Assembly: GCA_964466475.1 (NCBI GenBank)
Contig: CAYXNB010000002.1
Span: 1-53,157 of the forward strand
From: an uncultured Candidatus Saccharibacteria bacterium
GTDB lineage: Bacteria; Patescibacteriota; Minisyncoccia; UBA6257; GWB1-50-10
Length of the DNA: 53,157 nucleotides
Direction of reading: 5' to 3'
Both the position numbers and the translations under genes were made by a program. Each line of letters opens with the position of its first letter. Position 1 is the stretch's first letter. Under the pieces are notes generated by a model. It was not told where the DNA came from. It did not search any database and was given only the letters and a program-made list of their open reading frames with translations. Below are positions 1,873 to 51,616 of this stretch, in pieces.

Positions 1873-3240
1873 ATGAAGAAAATTTCTGCTCTGTTTTTCG
1901 TTCTCACAATAATCGCAAATGCCGCCTCGCCGTATTCCGCACGCGCGCAAAATCTCTCCCCGGACGGTAAAACCCGGGCCGAACTCGAAGCCGAACTCGC
2001 GGAGCTGGAGCGCAAAATCGAAGAACAGCAAAAGGAAGTAACCAAGTACAAAACCCAGGGCACGACCCTGAAAAACGAGATAAATTCCCTGAACGCGCGA
2101 ATCAATAAACTAAATCTCCAGATCAAATCCCTTGACCTTACTATAGAAAAAGTCGGGCAAAACATAGTGGAAACTCAGCGAAGCATCCTGACCACGGAAC
2201 AAAAAATAGAAATACATAAAGATGCCCTGACAACCGCCGTGCGCAATCTCTACGAACAGGATCAGGAGGGTCTTGTGGAGATTCTCTTGAAAAACAAAGA
2301 ACTCTCGGACTTCTTCGGCGGCATGAACGAGATAGCGAGAGTGCAGACCAATCTCCGCGTGGCGCTTGAAGAGATTATGGGCCTCCGCCAAAATCTTGTC
2401 GCGCAAAAAAATGAACTCGAACTCGAAAAACGGGATAATGAAAATCTAAAGCAGGCCCAGGAACGGCAGAAACAAACCACCCAACTGACTCAAAAAGAAA
2501 AAGATCAGTTGTTGAAAGCCACGAAAGGAAAAGAATCCGAATATCAGAAACTATTGGAAAAATCCAAAGAAACCGCGGCGCAAATCAGAAGCCGCATCTT
2601 CCAGCTTTTGGGCGGCGGAGAACTGACCTTTGAAAAGGCGTACGAATTCGCCAAGCTCGCGGAAAAAGCGACCGGAGTCCGCGCCGCCTTTATCCTCGCG
2701 ATCTTAAACCAGGAATCCGCCTTCGGCCGGAACGTAGGCCAGTGCAAATACAACACCATCATGTCCCAGACCGGAAAGACCGTCATGCGCCCCTCGGACA
2801 TCCCTTATTTCGAGGAGCTCCTTCGCCGCCTCGGCATTGATCCGGAATCCCGCGCCGCCTATGTCTCCTGCCCTATTTTGCGGGACGGCAATCACGGAGG
2901 CGCGATGGGTCCGGCACAATTCATCCCTTCCACGTGGAAATTATATGAAAAAGAAATCGCCCGCGTAACGGGCAATAACCCCCCGAACCCGTGGTCAAAC
3001 TCTGATGCCTTTGCGGGCACCGCCCTCTATCTCAAGGACTCCCTAAACTCGTCATCATGCAGAAATTACGTGAATGAAAACAAACACATCGCGGACGCGC
3101 AAATCCTGGCCGAACGCTGCGCCGCCTCCCAATACTACGCCGGAGGCAGGTGGTATACCTACCGCTGGGTCTATGGAGAACCGGTGATCCAAAAAGCCCA
3201 AAAATTCCAGGCGGATATAAACGTATTGGAAGGGGCGTAA
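1873..3240 (+). CDS. Secreted coiled-coil protein with C-terminal lytic transglycosylase (MltB/SLT-like) domain
   Basis: Signal peptide MKKISALFFVLTIIANAASPYSARA, a long heptad-rich region, then ILNQESAFG and GAMGPAQFIPSTW, which are transglycosylase motifs. Confidence 0.75.
   Translation: MKKISALFFVLTIIANAASPYSARAQNLSPDGKTRAELEAELAELERKIEEQQKEVTKYKTQGTTLKNEINSLNARINKLNLQIKSLDLTIEKVGQNIVETQRSILTTEQKIEIHKDALTTAVRNLYEQDQEGLVEILLKNKELSDFFGGMNEIARVQTNLRVALEEIMGLRQNLVAQKNELELEKRDNENLKQAQERQKQTTQLTQKEKDQLLKATKGKESEYQKLLEKSKETAAQIRSRIFQLLGGGELTFEKAYEFAKLAEKATGVRAAFILAILNQESAFGRNVGQCKYNTIMSQTGKTVMRPSDIPYFEELLRRLGIDPESRAAYVSCPILRDGNHGGAMGPAQFIPSTWKLYEKEIARVTGNNPPNPWSNSDAFAGTALYLKDSLNSSSCRNYVNENKHIADAQILAERCAASQYYAGGRWYTYRWVYGEPVIQKAQKFQADINVLEGA
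3197..3233 (+). repeat. 37-bp direct repeat, copy 1 (3' end of the transglycosylase gene)
   Basis: cccaaaaattccaggcggatataaacgtattggaagg matches 5239-5275 at 36 of 37 positions. Confidence 0.9.
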
Positions 3241-3262
3241 ATTAACATCTATAATAAAACAC

Positions 3263-5236
3263 ATGTCATTCAATCCGGAAGTTCACATGTTCCAAATCCC
3301 GGAAGAAAACACGCGAGCAAAATCGGCAGAACTCGCGGAGAATCTGATGGAATTAAGCGCGGAAATAAGCGCGTGCGTACCGAAGAACGTGGAGATATTT
3401 ACATCGCCGGAATCAAAAACCCGACAAGATCTCTATTATGAAATATCTGCCGCCTGCACGGCCCAAGAGCAAGGCGGAGAAATCCCTGAAAAAACCTTAA
3501 ACCAGATTGCGGCCGACATGACAATATTCCTTGGTGAACATCCATTCAATAAAAGAATCGTATTCTATTACCCGGCGCACCTGATGCCGGATTGCGGAAA
3601 AGAACAAAGACAAAAAAATCCGGAACGCGAAACATTCGCGAAAACTTACGCCGAAAAATGGAAAGAACTCGTCATGGGAGAAAGCGCCGAAGAATCCATG
3701 GAGGCGCTGGAACAAATATCCGCGCTTCTTGAAAAAAATATCGTTACGCCGAATGAGGTGGAAGAAATAATCAGAAATCCGGCGGTCGCGCGAAACGCGA
3801 TGTGCGTGCCGGAATGCGTTACTTCAAAAATTTTTGACAGACAAACCTTTCCGCTAAATGAGTGGAAAAACGCGGTTGAGTCGGCCGCGTCCCGTTTTGA
3901 GGCGCAGCAATACCTGCAAATCTTACCAACCCTCATGGAATACGGGATAGCGGACGCGGATTCGTGGGAAAAAGCAATTCACAACGAAAAAACTCATATC
4001 CGGACAGAAGCCGCGCTGATTGTTCCGCGAATGATAGAAAAAGGAAAAATACGATTTTCAACGGAAGAGTGGAGAGATCTCGCAAGAAATTCCTCGCTAA
4101 GCGTTCGAGAGGCCGCCTTTTCCATATTATCCGACCTGCTCCGTCTTGGGGCAATAACAAAAGAAACTCTGCCCATCGAAGAAATACGAAAAGCCGCGGC
4201 CGGGAAAGACACGGCTCTGCAGGAACACATTATAGATTCTTTTCCGGAATTGATGGAAATGGGCATGATATCAATCGGACAATGGAAAAATCTGCTAAAA
4301 AACCCGAAAAAAGAAATTAGAGAAAAAGCAATAAGTATCCTGCCAGAATTGACGGGTAAAAATCTTCTGACAAAAGAAAATTTTCAAACACCGGAATGGA
4401 TCGCCCTTCTTACAGACAACGAGGAAGACGTCCGAAGAAAAGCGGCAAAAATGATAGGAGCGCTTCTGGACGCGGGTATAATAGAAAATACCGACACATA
4501 CCGGCAACTCCTCCAAAGCACCGACAAGGCAACTCGTTCGGGAGCGATAGAAATCCTGTCCGCGCAAATACGCAAGGGCAGAATAACGCCAAAAGAAATC
4601 ACCGAGCTTACCATGCAAATACCGAACCTTACGCTCCCGCGGGGATTCACGGAAAACCCTGACCTGAAAGAAGTGGTAATGGATGTAAAAATGTTACGAA
4701 AAGCGATTCAAAAAATCGCGCAAAAACACCCAAAAATGCTGCCGGGGTTCCTTCTTCTTGGATCAGCGGCAAAAGGCTACAGCGTTCCGTCGTCCGACCT
4801 GGATATCGCCATAATAATTCAAAAAGATATTTCTTTTGAGGAGCAGGAGGAGATACAAAACGCGATTATACAAGCGGGATTAGAGATGAATGTGATTATA
4901 GACGGATATCACACAATCCCTGTGTCTGATTTTGAACAACCCCGCCTCGCGTCAATGCTTCCGGAAGAAGAGATAGCGACACTCATGATAGGAGAAGTAG
5001 TCGGATCCGATGCGATGGTAAAAGTCCGAGATGCGATTATCAAGGACTTCCAAGAAAAAACGACGGAAAAAGAAGAAACAAATGTCTTGCGAACTATGGA
5101 AACGCACCTGCTTCGCTGGAATATCGCCGAGGAAGCGATGCAACGGGCATATACAAGAGAAAAACCTTACGACAAAAAAGATCCGCAATATAAAGAAGTC
5201 GCGACGCTCGCCTTCCTTACGAAACTGGTTTTATAA
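3263..5236 (+). CDS. HEAT-like repeat protein with C-terminal minimal nucleotidyltransferase (pol-beta superfamily) domain
   Basis: Repeated xxVRxxAaxiLxxLxxxG units (SVREAAFSILSDLL, EIREKAISILPEL, DVRRKAAKMIGALL, ATRSGAIEILSAQI), then LLLGSAAKGYSVPSSDLDIAIII, a GS...DxD nucleotidyltransferase motif. Confidence 0.7.
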   Translation: MSFNPEVHMFQIPEENTRAKSAELAENLMELSAEISACVPKNVEIFTSPESKTRQDLYYEISAACTAQEQGGEIPEKTLNQIAADMTIFLGEHPFNKRIVFYYPAHLMPDCGKEQRQKNPERETFAKTYAEKWKELVMGESAEESMEALEQISALLEKNIVTPNEVEEIIRNPAVARNAMCVPECVTSKIFDRQTFPLNEWKNAVESAASRFEAQQYLQILPTLMEYGIADADSWEKAIHNEKTHIRTEAALIVPRMIEKGKIRFSTEEWRDLARNSSLSVREAAFSILSDLLRLGAITKETLPIEEIRKAAAGKDTALQEHIIDSFPELMEMGMISIGQWKNLLKNPKKEIREKAISILPELTGKNLLTKENFQTPEWIALLTDNEEDVRRKAAKMIGALLDAGIIENTDTYRQLLQSTDKATRSGAIEILSAQIRKGRITPKEITELTMQIPNLTLPRGFTENPDLKEVVMDVKMLRKAIQKIAQKHPKMLPGFLLLGSAAKGYSVPSSDLDIAIIIQKDISFEEQEEIQNAIIQAGLEMNVIIDGYHTIPVSDFEQPRLASMLPEEEIATLMIGEVVGSDAMVKVRDAIIKDFQEKTTEKEETNVLRTMETHLLRWNIAEEAMQRAYTREKPYDKKDPQYKEVATLAFLTKLVL

Positions 5237-5238
5237 AT

Positions 5239-5275
5239 CCCAAAAATTCCAGGCGGATATAAACGTGTTGGAAGG
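5239..5275 (+). repeat. 37-bp direct repeat, copy 2 (orphan gene 3' end followed by stop and terminator)
   Basis: cccaaaaattccaggcggatataaacgtgttggaagg. It still encodes ..QKFQADINVLEG, followed by a stop codon. Confidence 0.9.
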
Positions 5276-5285
5276 AATGTAAAAT

Positions 5286-5309
5286 AAGCGCACCCTAAAA
5301 GGTGCGCTT
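5286..5309. terminator. Bidirectional hairpin between convergent genes
   Basis: aagcgcacc ctaaaa ggtgcgctt. Confidence 0.65.
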
Positions 5310-5316
5310 ATCGTAT

Positions 5317-6621
5317 TCAGAGACCCGCGATTTCCCTAAACTGCCGGACACCGGCATGGAGTTTCTCCGTGATCACGGGCAGATGAGGCACCGTGAAAGC
5401 GTCAGGCGAACCAACCGCTCTGCCGGTTAGACACACCGCCGTAAGTTCATCACGGCCGATCACGCCTTCCTGAACCAAGCGAATGTACCCAGCAAGCGTT
5501 GTACCGCCCGCTGGTTCAACCGCGATGCCCTCAGTGGCAAAGAGGACCTCCATCGCCCGGAGAACCTCTTCGTCAGACGGAGAAACTCCCATCCCACCGG
5601 ATTCGCGAACCGCCCGAACCGCCGTCGGCCCATCCGCCGGCGAACCGATAGCAAGAGCGCTCACTATCGTTTTTGGAGTCCGCACCGGACGAATCTCGCG
5701 AAACCCGCCCCGAATAGCATCCACGATCGGTGAACAACCGGAAGGTTGCGCGACGTGCAGTCGACACGACGCGACGTCCACCAAACCGAAATGTTCGAGA
5801 TCGCGAATGGCACGAGAAACACCACGAATTAGAGTTGCGCCCGCGACAGGCAGAACGACGTGCTCTGGCAAGCGGCCGCCAAACTGGGCGAAAAGTTCGA
5901 AGAGAATCGTCTTCGCGCCCTCGGCGTACCACGGACGAAGATTCACGTTGACGAACGCCACGCCGCCATCTTCTGCGCCAGCGATAAGCCCGCACAGAGT
6001 ATTCACATCATCGTAGGTCCCGTCAACCAGGATAACGAGACCGCCGAACGAAGTGATCGCCTGGATCTTGTGTGCCTCAAGCGAGCGCGGCACAAGAACA
6101 AAGGCGGGAAGATTGAGGGCCTGGGCCTGAGCAGCAACGGCACGAGCGAGATTGCCCGTACTCGCGCAACCAAAAGCCCTCCAACCCTGCTCAAGTGCCG
6201 CGCTGAAAGCAACGGCAACGACCCGATCCTTGTATGAACCGGAAGGCAGATTCGAGGAGTCAAGCTTCAGAAAGAACGTACCGGGAAGAACGCCCAGCGC
6301 GCGACCGAGTTCGTCAGCGGGGTGAAGCGATGTGCCGCCCGATTCACGACCAACCGCAAGTTCGTTGATCGGCAGAAACGGCAAGGCCCGCTCCAGCGCC
6401 GAAAGTGACGTATCAAACAGACGCTCTTTCACGGCAGTCGACGACAGTCCGGTAAAATCGTACCCAATTGCAAGCGGAGCGAAGCACCGCTCGCACGAAT
6501 AACGATTCCGCTCAATGGAGAAGCTTGCCTCGCACTCCAGACAAACGAGGCGAGAAACGAACACAGAGAAATCCTTTCCAGAAATTGTAAATGTGCGGAA
6601 GTGAGGTGCCTTCCTCCCCAT
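5317..6621 (-). CDS. thrC: Threonine synthase-like PLP-dependent enzyme with N-terminal zinc ribbon
   Basis: CLECEASF...SCERC zinc ribbon and the SGSYKDRV PLP-lysine motif; the length and glycine-rich loops fit the ThrC family. Confidence 0.65.
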   Translation of the reverse strand: MGRKAPHFRTFTISGKDFSVFVSRLVCLECEASFSIERNRYSCERCFAPLAIGYDFTGLSSTAVKERLFDTSLSALERALPFLPINELAVGRESGGTSLHPADELGRALGVLPGTFFLKLDSSNLPSGSYKDRVVAVAFSAALEQGWRAFGCASTGNLARAVAAQAQALNLPAFVLVPRSLEAHKIQAITSFGGLVILVDGTYDDVNTLCGLIAGAEDGGVAFVNVNLRPWYAEGAKTILFELFAQFGGRLPEHVVLPVAGATLIRGVSRAIRDLEHFGLVDVASCRLHVAQPSGCSPIVDAIRGGFREIRPVRTPKTIVSALAIGSPADGPTAVRAVRESGGMGVSPSDEEVLRAMEVLFATEGIAVEPAGGTTLAGYIRLVQEGVIGRDELTAVCLTGRAVGSPDAFTVPHLPVITEKLHAGVRQFREIAGL

Positions 6622-6649
6622 CGGACGAAAGCACCCATCTCCAGCCCAT

Positions 6650-6692
6650 TTTCAAAAAAATACAAAAAAACACCCCGGGAAGGCCGGAGGTG
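6650..6692 (-). terminator. Hairpin plus U-run about 30 nt upstream of the thrC start (prfA terminator and/or attenuator)
   Basis: Minus strand reads gcacctccggccttcccggggtg tttttttgtattttttt. Confidence 0.45.
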
Positions 6693-6805
6693 CTTTTGAA
6701 ACATCTATGTCGTAACGAACGCTACAACGCACAACCTAACCTTCCCATAGGGTGGCGCATCATCATGCCTGAAACAATGTAAATCACAAAACTCATAATA
6801 AAATT

Positions 6806-6833
6806 ATTATAAAAAACACGAAGAAGAAGTCAA
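6806..6833 (-). promoter_or_regulatory. Candidate promoter TTGACT-16 nt-TATAAT between prfA and thrC
   Basis: Minus strand reads ttgact tcttcttcgtgttttt tataat. Confidence 0.5.
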
Positions 6834-6839
6834 GCGCAG

Positions 6840-7577
6840 TTATCCCCCCTCCCGAAACCCCCTCACAATCTTATCAAACCCCCCGTTCATAATCCCCTCG
6901 ATATTTCCCCACTTCTTGCCGATGCGGTGGTCCGTAATCCTGTCCTGCGGGAAGTTATAAGTCCGAATTTTTTCTGAACGATCTCCGGTGCCAATCTGCT
7001 CCCGTCGGATCTGATCAATCGAGCCGACCTGCTGTTCCCTTTGCGCCTCATACAGTTTCGCCCGCAAAACCCCCATGGCCCGCTCGCGGTTGGCGTGCTG
7101 ACTCCGCTCCTCGCGCGAAGAAACCACAATCCCCGTGGGTTTATGGAGTATCCGAACCGCGGTCTCCACCTTATTCACGTTCTGCCCTCCGGGCCCTCCT
7201 GCCCGCGAAAAAGTAATTTCCAAATCCCCCTCGTTCAAACGCACCTCGGTTGGCTCCACATACGGCAATACCGCAACTGAAGCAGTGGAAGTATGAATCC
7301 TTCCCTGCCGCTCGGTTTTCGGCACCCTCTGCACCCGATGCACCCCCGACTCGTGCTTCATCTCGTCATACGCTCCTTCGCCGGAAATTTCTCCCACTAA
7401 CGTCTTAAAACCGCCGGACGGGTTCTCGCTTGCGTCAAGAATGGAAAATTTCCATCCCCGATGCTCCGCGTATCTGCGGTACATATTCACAAGGTCTCCG
7501 GCAAAAAGCCCGGCCTCGTCTCCTCCTGCTCCTGCCCGCACCTCCAAAATTATTTTTTTAATTTGTTTTTCGTCCAT
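6840..7577 (-). CDS. prfA: Peptide chain release factor 1-like protein lacking N-terminal domain 1
   Basis: GGQ motif ([10 protein letters not shown]) and a PxT-type decoding motif ([13 protein letters not shown]). Alignment by eye starts at about residue 105 of E. coli RF1. There is no room upstream for the missing domain. Confidence 0.8.
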
Positions 7578-14548: not shown

Positions 14549-14586
14549 AATTTCGTGGATTCGGATAATTCGTAGTTTCGGAACGA

Positions 14587-19997: not shown

Positions 19998-21014
19998 CTA
20001 CCGAATTTCCGCGTATGGCTGGAATGTTTCCGAAGTCCGAATCGGCAACTCTTCCACCCGAGAAACCTTTTCGTCCCGAATGAAGACGCGAAGCATGAGC
20101 CCCCGCATGGTCTCTTCCGAAAAACTCTGGTCAAACACAAAATTCCCCAAACTATACGCGATCCATCCGTCCTTATATTTCTCAACTTCCTGTACCACGT
20201 GCGGATGATGTCCGACTACCAAATCCGCCCCGGCATCTATAATCGCGCGAGCAACTTCTCTTTGTGCGACACTCGAACTCGTTGCGTACTCCTCGCCCCA
20301 ATGATACGAAACTACGAGAATATCCGCCTGCCCGCGCGCCTCCGCGACGCGTTCCAAAACATACTCCAAACGCGCATCGCTCACTCCGGGCCGCTCTTCC
20401 CCGGCAACCAATCCCTCAGGATACAAATTCGTATATGCCAAAAAACCAACTCGAATTTCACGAGCCGAAGGCGAGTTAATTTCTACAAATTTCGTTTCAT
20501 TCGCCTCTTCATAATTTCTCCCCGCCCCCACGGGCGCGATATTATTTTCTTTCAAAAGCGTAATCGTATCCTCCAGAGCATCCTGACCCCAGTCCATAAT
20601 GTGATTGTTCGCGAGAGACAAAACATCAAACCCCGCGAGCCGAAGTCCTTCGATAACCCGCGGATCCGCGCGAAAAGAATATATCGAGCCCTGATTCGCT
20701 CCGCGCGAAGAAATAGGACCCTCAAGGTTTCCAAATGTAATGTCCGCAGAGGCAAGCGTGTCCGCTATCAACCGAAACGGATACGCGAAATCACTTTCCC
20801 TTTGCATCGCGGCTCCCACGCTCCTTGAGAGCATAATATCCCCGACAAAAAGCAGTTCCACCTCTTTCGTAGATTCGGATAATTCGTAGTTTCGGAGCGG
20901 TTCTCTTTGTAGATTCGGAAGATTCGTGGTTTCGGAGCGGTTTAAAAAATACAAAACCCCCGAAAACCCGAAGGATACAAGTGAAAGTAAAAAAACAAAA
21001 ATCCAATACCTCAC
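19998..21014 (-). CDS. capA: CapA-family metallophosphatase (poly-gamma-glutamate synthesis-like)
   Basis: VGDIML, LANNHIMDWG, VSYHWGEEY and VVGHHPHVVQ. An N-terminal TM segment is followed by a region encoded by a tandem nucleotide repeat. Confidence 0.8.
   Translation of the reverse strand: MRYWIFVFLLSLVSFGFSGVLYFLNRSETTNLPNLQREPLRNYELSESTKEVELLFVGDIMLSRSVGAAMQRESDFAYPFRLIADTLASADITFGNLEGPISSRGANQGSIYSFRADPRVIEGLRLAGFDVLSLANNHIMDWGQDALEDTITLLKENNIAPVGAGRNYEEANETKFVEINSPSAREIRVGFLAYTNLYPEGLVAGEERPGVSDARLEYVLERVAEARGQADILVVSYHWGEEYATSSSVAQREVARAIIDAGADLVVGHHPHVVQEVEKYKDGWIAYSLGNFVFDQSFSEETMRGLMLRVFIRDEKVSRVEELPIRTSETFQPYAEIR
20865..20940 (-). repeat. Two imperfect tandem units (about 35-40 nt) with four TTCGGA half-sites, inside the capA 5' region
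   Basis: tttcgtagattcggataattcgtagtttcggagcgg followed by tttgtagattcggaagattcgtggtttcggagcgg. The 25-mer at 20872-20896 is identical to 14558-14582. Confidence 0.85.
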
Positions 21015-27203: not shown

Positions 27204-27432
27204 GAATCTCTCCTTATGATTGAGAAGCAACTCTCGCAGACGCGCCGGGCTTGGTCCCCGAAGGGGCCGGCGCGTCGAGAGCGTAGTGGGTTCATTCGTC
27301 CGGGGGATGAATGAACAGGCGACAAACCTTGTGCGATAGAATGTCGCCCGGGAGCGAAGAGTCGCTGGAAGATTCGTTCGTCCGGGGGACGAACGAATGA
27401 CACCCGGTGCTTCGAAACATAAGGAGAGATTC
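27204..27432 (+). ncRNA. Family-A structured element, copy 1 (unknown class)
   Basis: A 15-bp closing stem (27204-27218 with 27418-27432). A 70-nt core is 97% identical to 51479-51548, and a conserved 3' segment ccggtgcttcgaaaca is also shared. Three extra hairpins lie in the variable region. Confidence 0.6.
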
Positions 27433-30832: not shown

Positions 30833-31062
30833 GGAAACTTCGCCGCAGTGTTCGAGCGGATTCTGAGGCCGTTTTGGCATGGTCTCCGACCCGCCGTCCG
30901 CCGACTGGCGGAGGCGGGGAGGAGCAAAACGGCCGAGGCCTCGGAGCAAGCGGCTGGGCCCAATCGTCCGGGGGACGATTGGGCGGGCAAGCAACCGAAG
31001 TTATAATCCGTGCTTGCCCGGGACCGAGCGAGAATGAGCGAGGACACTGCGGCGGAGTTTCC
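30833..31062 (+). ncRNA. Family-B structured element, copy 1 (unknown class)
   Basis: An 18-bp closing stem (30833-30850 with 31045-31062) encloses at least 4 internal helices. Differences from the 50244-50452 copy are compensatory. G-U pairs favour the + strand. Confidence 0.65.
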
Positions 31063-31070
31063 GTACCAGC

Positions 31071-50243: not shown

Positions 50244-50452
50244 AGAAACTCTGCCGCGGTGTTCGAGCGGATTCTGAGGCCGTTTTGGCATGGTCTCCGA
50301 GCCGAGCGAGGAGCAAAACGGCCGAAGCCTCGGAGCGAGCGGCTGGGCCTAATTGTCCGGGGGACAATTAGGCGGGCAAGATACCGAAGTAATAAATCGA
50401 ATCTTGCCCTGGACCGAGCGAGAATGAGCGAGGGCACTGCGGCAGAGTTTCC
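50244..50452 (+). ncRNA. Family-B structured element, copy 2
   Basis: Same architecture as 30833-31062. Closing stem is 50244-50261 with 50435-50452. It has a shorter apical hairpin and compensatory substitutions in three helices. Confidence 0.65.
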
Positions 50453-50467
50453 GTGCGTCGCAACACC

Positions 50468-51448: not shown

Positions 51449-51462
51449 AATAAAATCTGAAA

Positions 51463-51607
51463 GCGCAAGGCGGTTTTGATTTAGAAGCAACTCTCGGAGA
51501 CGCGCCGGGCTTGGTCCCCGAAGGGGCCGGCGCGTCGAGAGCGTAGTGCTGCGCCGTGCCGCCGGAGCACGGCGACAGCCGGTGCTTCGAAACAAAACCG
51601 CTTGCGC
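51463..51607 (+). ncRNA. Family-A structured element, copy 2 (compact version)
   Basis: The closing stem (51463-51478 with 51593-51607) has a different sequence from copy 1 but is still complementary. The core is identical. A single hairpin gccgtgc..gcacggc replaces the three hairpins of copy 1. Confidence 0.6.
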
Positions 51608-51616
51608 GCAAAATCT

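Follow-up and report, generated by a model that had tools for sequence, protein, structure and literature searches.

The stretch of DNA analysed here, called the window in the following, comprises 53,157 nt of contig CAYXNB010000002.1 (assembly GCA_964466475.1) from an uncultured Candidatus Saccharibacteria bacterium of the Patescibacteriota. Close to its left end, a gene for a 657-aa protein, referred to as the cargo gene, follows a lytic transglycosylase gene (the SLT gene) and is enclosed by two direct repeats, the left one of which is the 3' end of the SLT gene itself. To the right lie a hairpin and the genes thrC and prfA. The locus is composed of the following features, whereby G001 and G002 denote two relatives of the same genus:

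1873–3240, plus strand: SLT gene, a host core gene of 455 aa for a coiled-coil and SLT_2 lytic transglycosylase, present in 61/61 relatives searched
3193–3245, plus strand: repeat copy 1, the last 15 codons and the stop of the SLT gene plus 5 nt, whose TTGGAA doubles as the -35 element of the cargo gene
3226–3255, plus strand: promoter-like site TTGGAA-18 nt-TATAAT, ending 7 nt before the cargo ATG, with no Shine-Dalgarno sequence
3263–5236, plus strand: cargo gene, 657 aa, with an N-terminal domain, a HEAT-type alpha-solenoid and an MNT/Pol-beta-type nucleotidyltransferase domain
5235–5287, plus strand: repeat copy 2, the probable displaced SLT gene end (SQKFQADINVLEGM-stop), non-coding here, whose last 12 nt provide the hairpin, read on the minus strand, with its U-rich tail
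5286–5309, either strand: strong bidirectional hairpin with a 9-bp stem, followed by a U-tract on the minus (thrC) side only; the hairpins after SLT in G001 and G002 have the same stem core
5317–6621, minus strand: thrC, threonine synthase, 434 aa, lineage-specific, passing the TIGR00260 cut-off
6622–6839, minus strand: thrC leader and promoter region, the last part of the 3.6 kb missing from relatives in the SLT–prfA interval
6840–7577, minus strand: short prfA (RF1-type) gene, the conserved right flank of the SLT–prfA hotspot described below, convergent with SLT

The original prediction, which was made from the DNA letters of this stretch, described a 37-mer at 3197–3233 that recurs at 5239–5275 and read the interval as a 2,042-bp insertion with one gene. 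All positions of the repeat were borne out: the 37-nt core CCCAAAAATTCCAGGCGGATATAAACGT(A/G)TTGGAAGG is present at both places with 36 of 37 nucleotides identical, the sole mismatch being A/G at 3225/5267, and no such match arose in 100 dinucleotide-preserving shuffles. Ungapped extension of the 37-mer yielded a 53-nt direct repeat (3193–3245 versus 5235–5287, 47/53 identical) with a spacing of 2042 nt between the copies. The longest exact run common to both is 28 nt, and five of the six mismatches lie outside the 37-nt core. Outside the 53 nt, the adjoining sequences show no significant similarity (shuffle p = 0.61 on the left and 0.28 on the right). The duplicated SLT end, including the stop codon, amounts to 48 nt and is present twice. 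Copy 1 completes the reading frame of SLT, which is intact. Copy 2, read in its own frame, which differs from that of the cargo open reading frame (ORF), gives S-QKFQADINVLEG-M-stop; compared to copy 1, two codon differences are synonymous (GTA/GTG and GGG/GGA) and one replaces Ala by Met. The 37-mer occurs nowhere else in the 53-kb window, and the genome-wide search that had been suggested along with the prediction found it to be unique in the 769,775 bp of the 44-contig genome, where a third copy of the repeat was not detected even at 10/37 or 6/28 mismatches. Genome self-BLAST revealed no other gene-end duplication of this kind, only paralogue blocks and a family of ~90-nt palindromic intergenic repeats.

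A duplication of this sort could also be an assembly artefact or a chimera between co-occurring strains, a concern that had been raised from the outset and that gains some weight because the 44 contigs of the genome were assembled from the metagenome of a single sample. However, a Logan assembly of run SRR5011273 contains both copies within 14,689 nt of 100% identity to the window, so that two independent assemblies agree over 14.7 kb. There is no 31-mer common to the two copies, and since their longest exact shared run of 28 nt is shorter than k = 31, repeat collapse or a mis-join cannot explain the structure. In addition, the six differences between the copies argue against a collapsed or duplicated read pile, and both flanks of the locus are syntenic with relatives. 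We therefore regard an artefact or chimera as extremely improbable.

The hairpin at 5286–5309, which had been predicted to follow a second copy that still encodes the SLT end plus stop, proved to be real: its folding energy is -18.7 kcal/mol on the plus strand and -20.3 kcal/mol on the minus strand (z about -6). The core of its stem, CGCACC/GGTGCG, recurs in hairpins downstream of SLT in both G001 and G002, and for this reason copy 2 together with the hairpin probably constitutes the displaced original gene end. Thus, the same-genus hairpin core and the layout in relatives support the proposal that the ancestral gene ended at the second copy and that the host gene end was regenerated at the first. 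The named SLT homologues are Jorgensenbacteria-like, the organism being a Patescibacterium. The two copies match each other at 36/37 positions but the SLT ends of relatives at only 28–33/37, and both carry the derived codons ATA (Ile) and TTG (Leu), which occur in no relative. As these lineage-specific codons are present in both copies, the duplication appears to have arisen within this lineage, with both copies deriving from its own SLT allele or from that of a very close relative. No other DNA stretch in the vicinity is as well conserved as the SLT end, which is therefore a natural homology anchor. The clustering of mismatches in the right arm may also have a functional explanation, as they make the tail of the thrC terminator richer in U (copy 2 UUAUUUUACAUU versus UUAAUUUACGCC at the equivalent place in copy 1).

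In relatives, the gene order rpmE-rplY-SLT followed by a convergent short prfA is conserved. The search for an empty site, which had been recommended as a check, showed that in 15 of 21 loci from relatives the SLT stop and the prfA stop are 0–200 nt apart, with 64 nt in the same-genus genome G002 and about 0 nt in contig L031, which carries the closest known SLT (86% aa identity). Here, the distance is 3603 nt, and the lineage-specific DNA therefore amounts to 3.6 kb rather than 2.04 kb, since it takes in the cargo gene, copy 2, the hairpin, thrC and the thrC leader. The insertion with its cargo gene thus stands as predicted, but its size has to be extended to include thrC and its leader. The ancestral layout was SLT stop, then hairpin, then prfA stop. 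Taken by itself, the conclusion that the insertion is genuine, specific to this lineage and accompanied by a duplicated gene end is in our view highly probable.

In none of 60 relatives was the 657-aa cargo detected. Other lineages hold unrelated genes between SLT and prfA, namely a PaaX-like gene with a Cas2-like domain in ~1 kb of DNA in G001, ORFs of 598 aa and 83 aa in contig L033 and an ORF of 212 aa in G046. On account of these different occupants, the SLT–prfA interval is a hotspot of gene gain, in which two accessory genes are stacked in the present lineage. The repeat, by comparison, is a one-off: no duplicated SLT end was seen in the inserts of G001, L033 and G046 or in any other of the 21 relative loci, and among 96 family genomes the SLT-end motif is present twice only here. 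G003 and G008 have no prfA after SLT, yet what lies downstream are housekeeping genes and not islands. The exact SLT, cargo and thrC proteins were recovered only on one Logan contig of SRR5011273, the organism being known from a single sample, and neither closer relatives nor a same-species empty site were found in these searches.

Two of the other occupants show features of their own. The insert of G001 (L004 2817–3850, G001:C25) contains a 205-aa PaaX_M/Cas2-like-domain gene with one copy of a 36-nt perfect palindrome, CTATCTTTAG.AGACGGCCGTCT..TAAAGATAG, on either side; this palindrome is dispersed at 7 loci in that genome and may be an operator or an element like the repetitive extragenic palindromes (REP). 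The insert of L033 (2825–4850) represents the hotspot in a more distant lineage, where SLT is 62% identical and its C-terminus still reads ...QKFQADINVLEGA; the 598-aa ORF contains an HEMGH motif and has no Pfam or PADLOC match, and the 83-aa ORF comes after it.

The cargo gene differs from its surroundings in composition, its GC content and its GC content at third codon positions (GC3) both falling within the lowest 5% of the genome's 477 long ORFs. Apart from the repeat, the unit is nearly one ORF, as only 17 nt of unique DNA precede the ATG and 0 nt follow the stop, the TAA (5234–5236) overlapping the first bases of copy 2. The nucleotidyltransferase motif of the protein is GSAAKGYSVPSSDLD. 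No close homologue was detected among 5.8 billion clustered proteins, but an exhaustive HMMER search retrieved ~70 distant relatives of similar length with 16–30% identity. The cargo is a divergent member (16–21% identity) of a Patescibacteria-wide family of ~640 aa, whose C-terminal block is conserved and ends in ...RVFLPxL. The family (window 3263–5236 and loci L041–L090) has invariant R54, Y102, P104, W133 and GS..K.Y..D.D as well as the conserved C-terminal block LQYRLMHKGY...FWDSGYRRLATKLF..RVFLP, and a full-length Pfam model for it apparently does not exist. The protein of the window ends in ...KLVL, which is one residue before the near-invariant Pro and 4–8 residues short of its homologues, exactly at the junction with copy 2. 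The AlphaFold model of the protein is of medium to low confidence (mean predicted local distance difference test score 62.5), and the only structures matched by Foldseek were generic HEAT solenoids (PP2A A subunit, importins) at template modelling scores of 0.2–0.3, which gave no functional lead. Weak matches to MntA and PDC-S09 give no more than a hint of a role in defence or of a toxin-antitoxin-like kind. The occurrence of the cargo gene in relatives at other loci without repeats had been named as a finding that would speak against the insertion. None of 28 loci encoding cargo homologues, all of them distant ones, is flanked by repeats, the best local alignment score there being at most 25 compared to 76 across the two copies in the window. 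The promoter-like site that the left junction was predicted to create likewise proved to be real and is the second-best one in the surrounding 6 kb. Because it lies 7 nt before the ATG and a Shine-Dalgarno sequence is missing, the cargo mRNA is probably leaderless.

The second accessory gene, thrC, was not found in 36 same-family genomes, and only distant matches exist in two same-order genomes. The gene looks foreign: no homologue exceeds 49% identity, and the named ones among the nearest belong to non-Patescibacteria (Phycisphaerae, Acidobacteriota, Armatimonadota). The GC content of thrC is 58.6% (95th percentile), whereas its GC3 is at the genome median. The opposite composition of cargo gene and thrC, of which only thrC is ameliorated in GC3, points to different histories and separate origins of the two, whereby thrC is probably the older resident. 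The predicted ThrC protein has an N-terminal CxxC...CxxC extension and ~24 C-terminal residues past the family model. A mirror-image scar on the other side was considered, as the C-terminus VRQFRE of thrC resembles VRGFRE of prfA, but was rejected since the DNA similarity is not significant (p = 0.64).

The original prediction regarded the arrangement as typical of an integrase-mediated insertion at a gene 3' end. In this case, a minimal att-bearing element, either a cassette of one gene or a decayed island resembling the cis-mobilizable elements (CIMEs), would have been integrated site-specifically by a tyrosine recombinase acting in trans, which might stem from a transient phage, a plasmid, an integrative and conjugative element (ICE) or the host's own Xer. 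In the attP site, the last 16 SLT codons would have been present in a diverged version, with the crossover in the identical 28-nt core; copy 1 with its element-derived right arm would represent attL, and copy 2, the original gene end, attR. The geometry fits this idea, as there is a 3'-end duplication with restored gene function, an identical core and diverged arms, and direct repeats that duplicate part of the target gene flank 3246–5234 (53 nt, 36/37 in the core). The compactness of the unit, essentially one ORF and the repeat, and the atypical GC3 of the cargo gene are also in line with it. However, no integrase is located within or near the unit, and relaxase, integrase or conjugation genes were found at or near the SLT–prfA site neither in this genome nor in relatives. 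Genome-wide, there is only one tyrosine recombinase, which is Xer-type and lies next to a Mur ligase gene, a housekeeping context, and there are three serine recombinases, which are not known to leave 28–37 nt of identity behind. Reuse of the att site was seen neither in 95 family genomes, which hold no integrative element or SLT-end repeat at the site, nor in the 21 relative loci; scans of viral contigs with the degenerate SLT-end motif and of metagenome contigs with the exact core 23-mer gave 0 matches each. Furthermore, the homologues of the cargo gene are nowhere repeat-flanked, and decay to exactly one ORF fits poorly with a nearly intact repeat. Given a single Xer, no third site in the genome and no integrase in relatives, the integrase-mediated origin could not be confirmed, and a homology-anchored scar fits at least equally well. 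Site-specific integration with a recombinase in trans is possible, yet we regard it as doubtful.

Integrase-less units at gene ends are not without precedent, which speaks for such an origin: CIMEs of 1.2–13 kb without recombination genes are known at the 3' ends of protein genes such as rpmG, rpsI and fda (PMC7563491). Like the unit described here, the CIMEs and integrase-less islets at fda, rpmG and rpsI in streptococci consist of 1–13 kb of cargo between repeats of the target 3' end, lack recombination and transfer genes and leave the target gene intact (PMC7563491). They derive, however, from ICEs or integrative and mobilizable elements (IMEs) with the same att and usually stand in tandem with them (PMC7563491), whereas derivation from or accretion with an ICE or IME at the same att was not observed here; no ICE, IME or integrase occupies the site in the 95 family genomes, the unit has just one ORF, and its host belongs to the Patescibacteria. 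Integron gene cassettes resemble the unit in having a single ORF, almost no non-coding DNA and one repeat of the size of a recombination site. Unlike in these, the repeat here is the host gene's own coding end and does not contain an attC-type palindrome, as it forms no hairpin and its folding energy is no better than that of shuffles on either strand of either copy (z about 0); moreover, there is no IntI-type integrase and no array, and the cargo gene has a promoter-like site of its own.

It could also be that the repeat is a Xer site and that the host Xer moved the gene as a Xer/dif-type module, similar to integrative mobile elements exploiting Xer (IMEX) or to pdif modules. The presence of a single Xer-type recombinase and of a module without its own recombinase would agree with this, but a dif-like third copy is missing from the 99.6%-complete genome at up to 10/37 mismatches, palindromic arms are lacking (the only inverted pair within the repeat is the 5-bp TTCCA/TGGAA, folding z about 0), and the site lies inside a coding region. 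Such a module is hardly credible. Both attC-like and dif-like models were rejected, since the repeat does not fold and there is no third site in the genome. The unit does not look like a transposon or insertion sequence either, as terminal inverted repeats are absent from its ends and its single ORF encodes the HEAT and nucleotidyltransferase protein; a duplication of 48–53 nt is also far longer than target-site duplications are known to be. A more far-reaching idea regards the 2,042-bp unit as a minimal mobile gene cassette native to Patescibacteria, consisting of one ORF and a ~50-nt recombination site that mimics the 3' end of a conserved cell-wall gene, inserted and excised by a recombinase in trans (the single host Xer or a visiting element), with a promoter across the junction and a leaderless mRNA; we consider this improbable.

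Another explanation without mobile elements is a local, replication-based rearrangement, in which the cargo gene first entered the spacer between SLT and hairpin without a repeat and the SLT end was subsequently copied to the far side by template switching or slippage, or the other way round. This would be in agreement with the origin of both copies from the same lineage allele and with the absence of mobile-element genes. It would, however, need two independent events with boundaries that match the ends of the cargo ORF, and neither a microhomology-rich complex junction nor any other such copy in the genome was observed. We judge it quite improbable.

The mechanism that we favour, and for which we see about an even chance, is integrase-independent recombination anchored in the conserved 3' end of SLT. 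According to this scenario, DNA was probably taken up from a close relative with a different occupant of the SLT–prfA hotspot. One route (a) would combine a homologous crossover within SLT or prfA, the core genes on either side, with an illegitimate join at a microhomology of 2–3 nt (TAA/AAA, 5234–5237), thereby merging an "SLT-cargo" haplotype with an "SLT-hairpin-thrC" haplotype; the imprecise join would also clip the last codons of the cargo gene. The other route (b) would be a Campbell-type single crossover of circular DNA through the 28–53 nt of shared sequence. As a consequence, SLT would keep a complete reading frame, the cargo gene would gain a promoter with its -35 element inside the SLT end and probably a leaderless mRNA, and the tail of the relic would serve as the U-tract of the thrC terminator. 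The junction at 5234–5237 indeed has an overlap of 2–3 nt (TAA/AAA), and the cargo C-terminus appears clipped there; the fact that the cargo ORF stops exactly at the junction and short of its homologues would fit an imprecise join. The site is empty in relatives, and its occupants differ by lineage. Furthermore, the genome encodes ComEC, DprA and RecA, and a type IV pilus operon starts directly after prfA. A toolkit for DNA uptake and recombination is thus present, and the host is likely naturally competent.

Homology-facilitated illegitimate recombination (HFIR) and Campbell integration by short homology during natural transformation have been described for Acinetobacter and Streptococcus. 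HFIR shares with the present locus a homologous anchor in a conserved gene, a join at a microhomology of a few bases and independence from a recombinase gene; the encoded ComEC, DprA, RecA and type IV pili and a junction that clips the end of an ORF add to the likeness. Its classical outcome, however, is replacement or deletion and not a 48-nt duplication. Hotspots of horizontal gene transfer that are flanked by core genes and devoid of mobile-element genes also hold unrelated accessory genes between two conserved convergent genes, as is the case here, but their turnover by double crossover is normally repeat-free, whereas at this locus the scar is preserved.

Several points weigh against the favoured mechanism. 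Integration by a tyrosine integrase classically leaves a direct repeat of a gene 3' end in which the core is identical and the arms have diverged, and the clustering of mismatches outside the core (5/6) together with unique DNA of nearly one ORF looks cassette-like. No parental haplotype was seen in the data searched, neither SLT-cargo without the repeat nor SLT-hairpin-thrC without the cargo gene, from an organism that is known from one sample. Illegitimate joins that leave a duplication instead of a deletion are rare, and the apparent C-terminal truncation of the cargo protein could merely reflect its divergence.

Apart from the locus, further repeats were noticed in the genome. The ~90-nt intergenic imperfect palindromes, TCCTAATCTAC...CCGAATC...GATTCGGAAGATTCGTAG..TTCGGAGCGG, are present in the window at 14551–14582 and 20865–20896, at C2:63629–63714, 64789–64876 and 67535–67624 of the same genome (G000) and on its contigs C13, C12 and C9; they recur every 1–4 kb in several arrays and look like REP or terminator-like dispersed repeats. 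Blocks of 130–210 nt in the window (27217–27419, 30919–31064, 50254–50454 and 51459–51610) are 84–96% identical to segments on C9, C12, C30, C32 and C44 and to each other, and probably represent dispersed repeats or conserved paralogue ends. In L035 (160–2952, corresponding to G000:C4:27219–30011), two pairs of perfect inverted repeats of 100–101 nt surround a serine recombinase gene with a 543-aa frame and bracket segments of ~1 kb and ~1.5 kb, which may constitute an invertible-segment system. The only Rfam match in the window is a 16S fragment at 1–583.

Overall, the kind of event is ordinary, namely gene gain at a hotspot with duplication of the target end, but it is cleanly documented in an unusual host. 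Since the event was observed only once, in one genome from a metagenome, its broader importance is limited. Accounts of gene gain in ultra-small Patescibacteria that resolve single base pairs are scarce: surveys have reported numerous transferred genes and "genomic islands" without describing the junctions (PMC12455944). The locus offers an exact before-and-after picture of gene gain at base-pair resolution, in which the 48-nt scar marks one junction. If the repeat is an att site, the unit would be a very small integrase-less cassette. If, on the other hand, the scar is recombinational, it would provide a concrete example of how a likely competent bacterium of the Candidate Phyla Radiation may gain genes via conserved gene ends.

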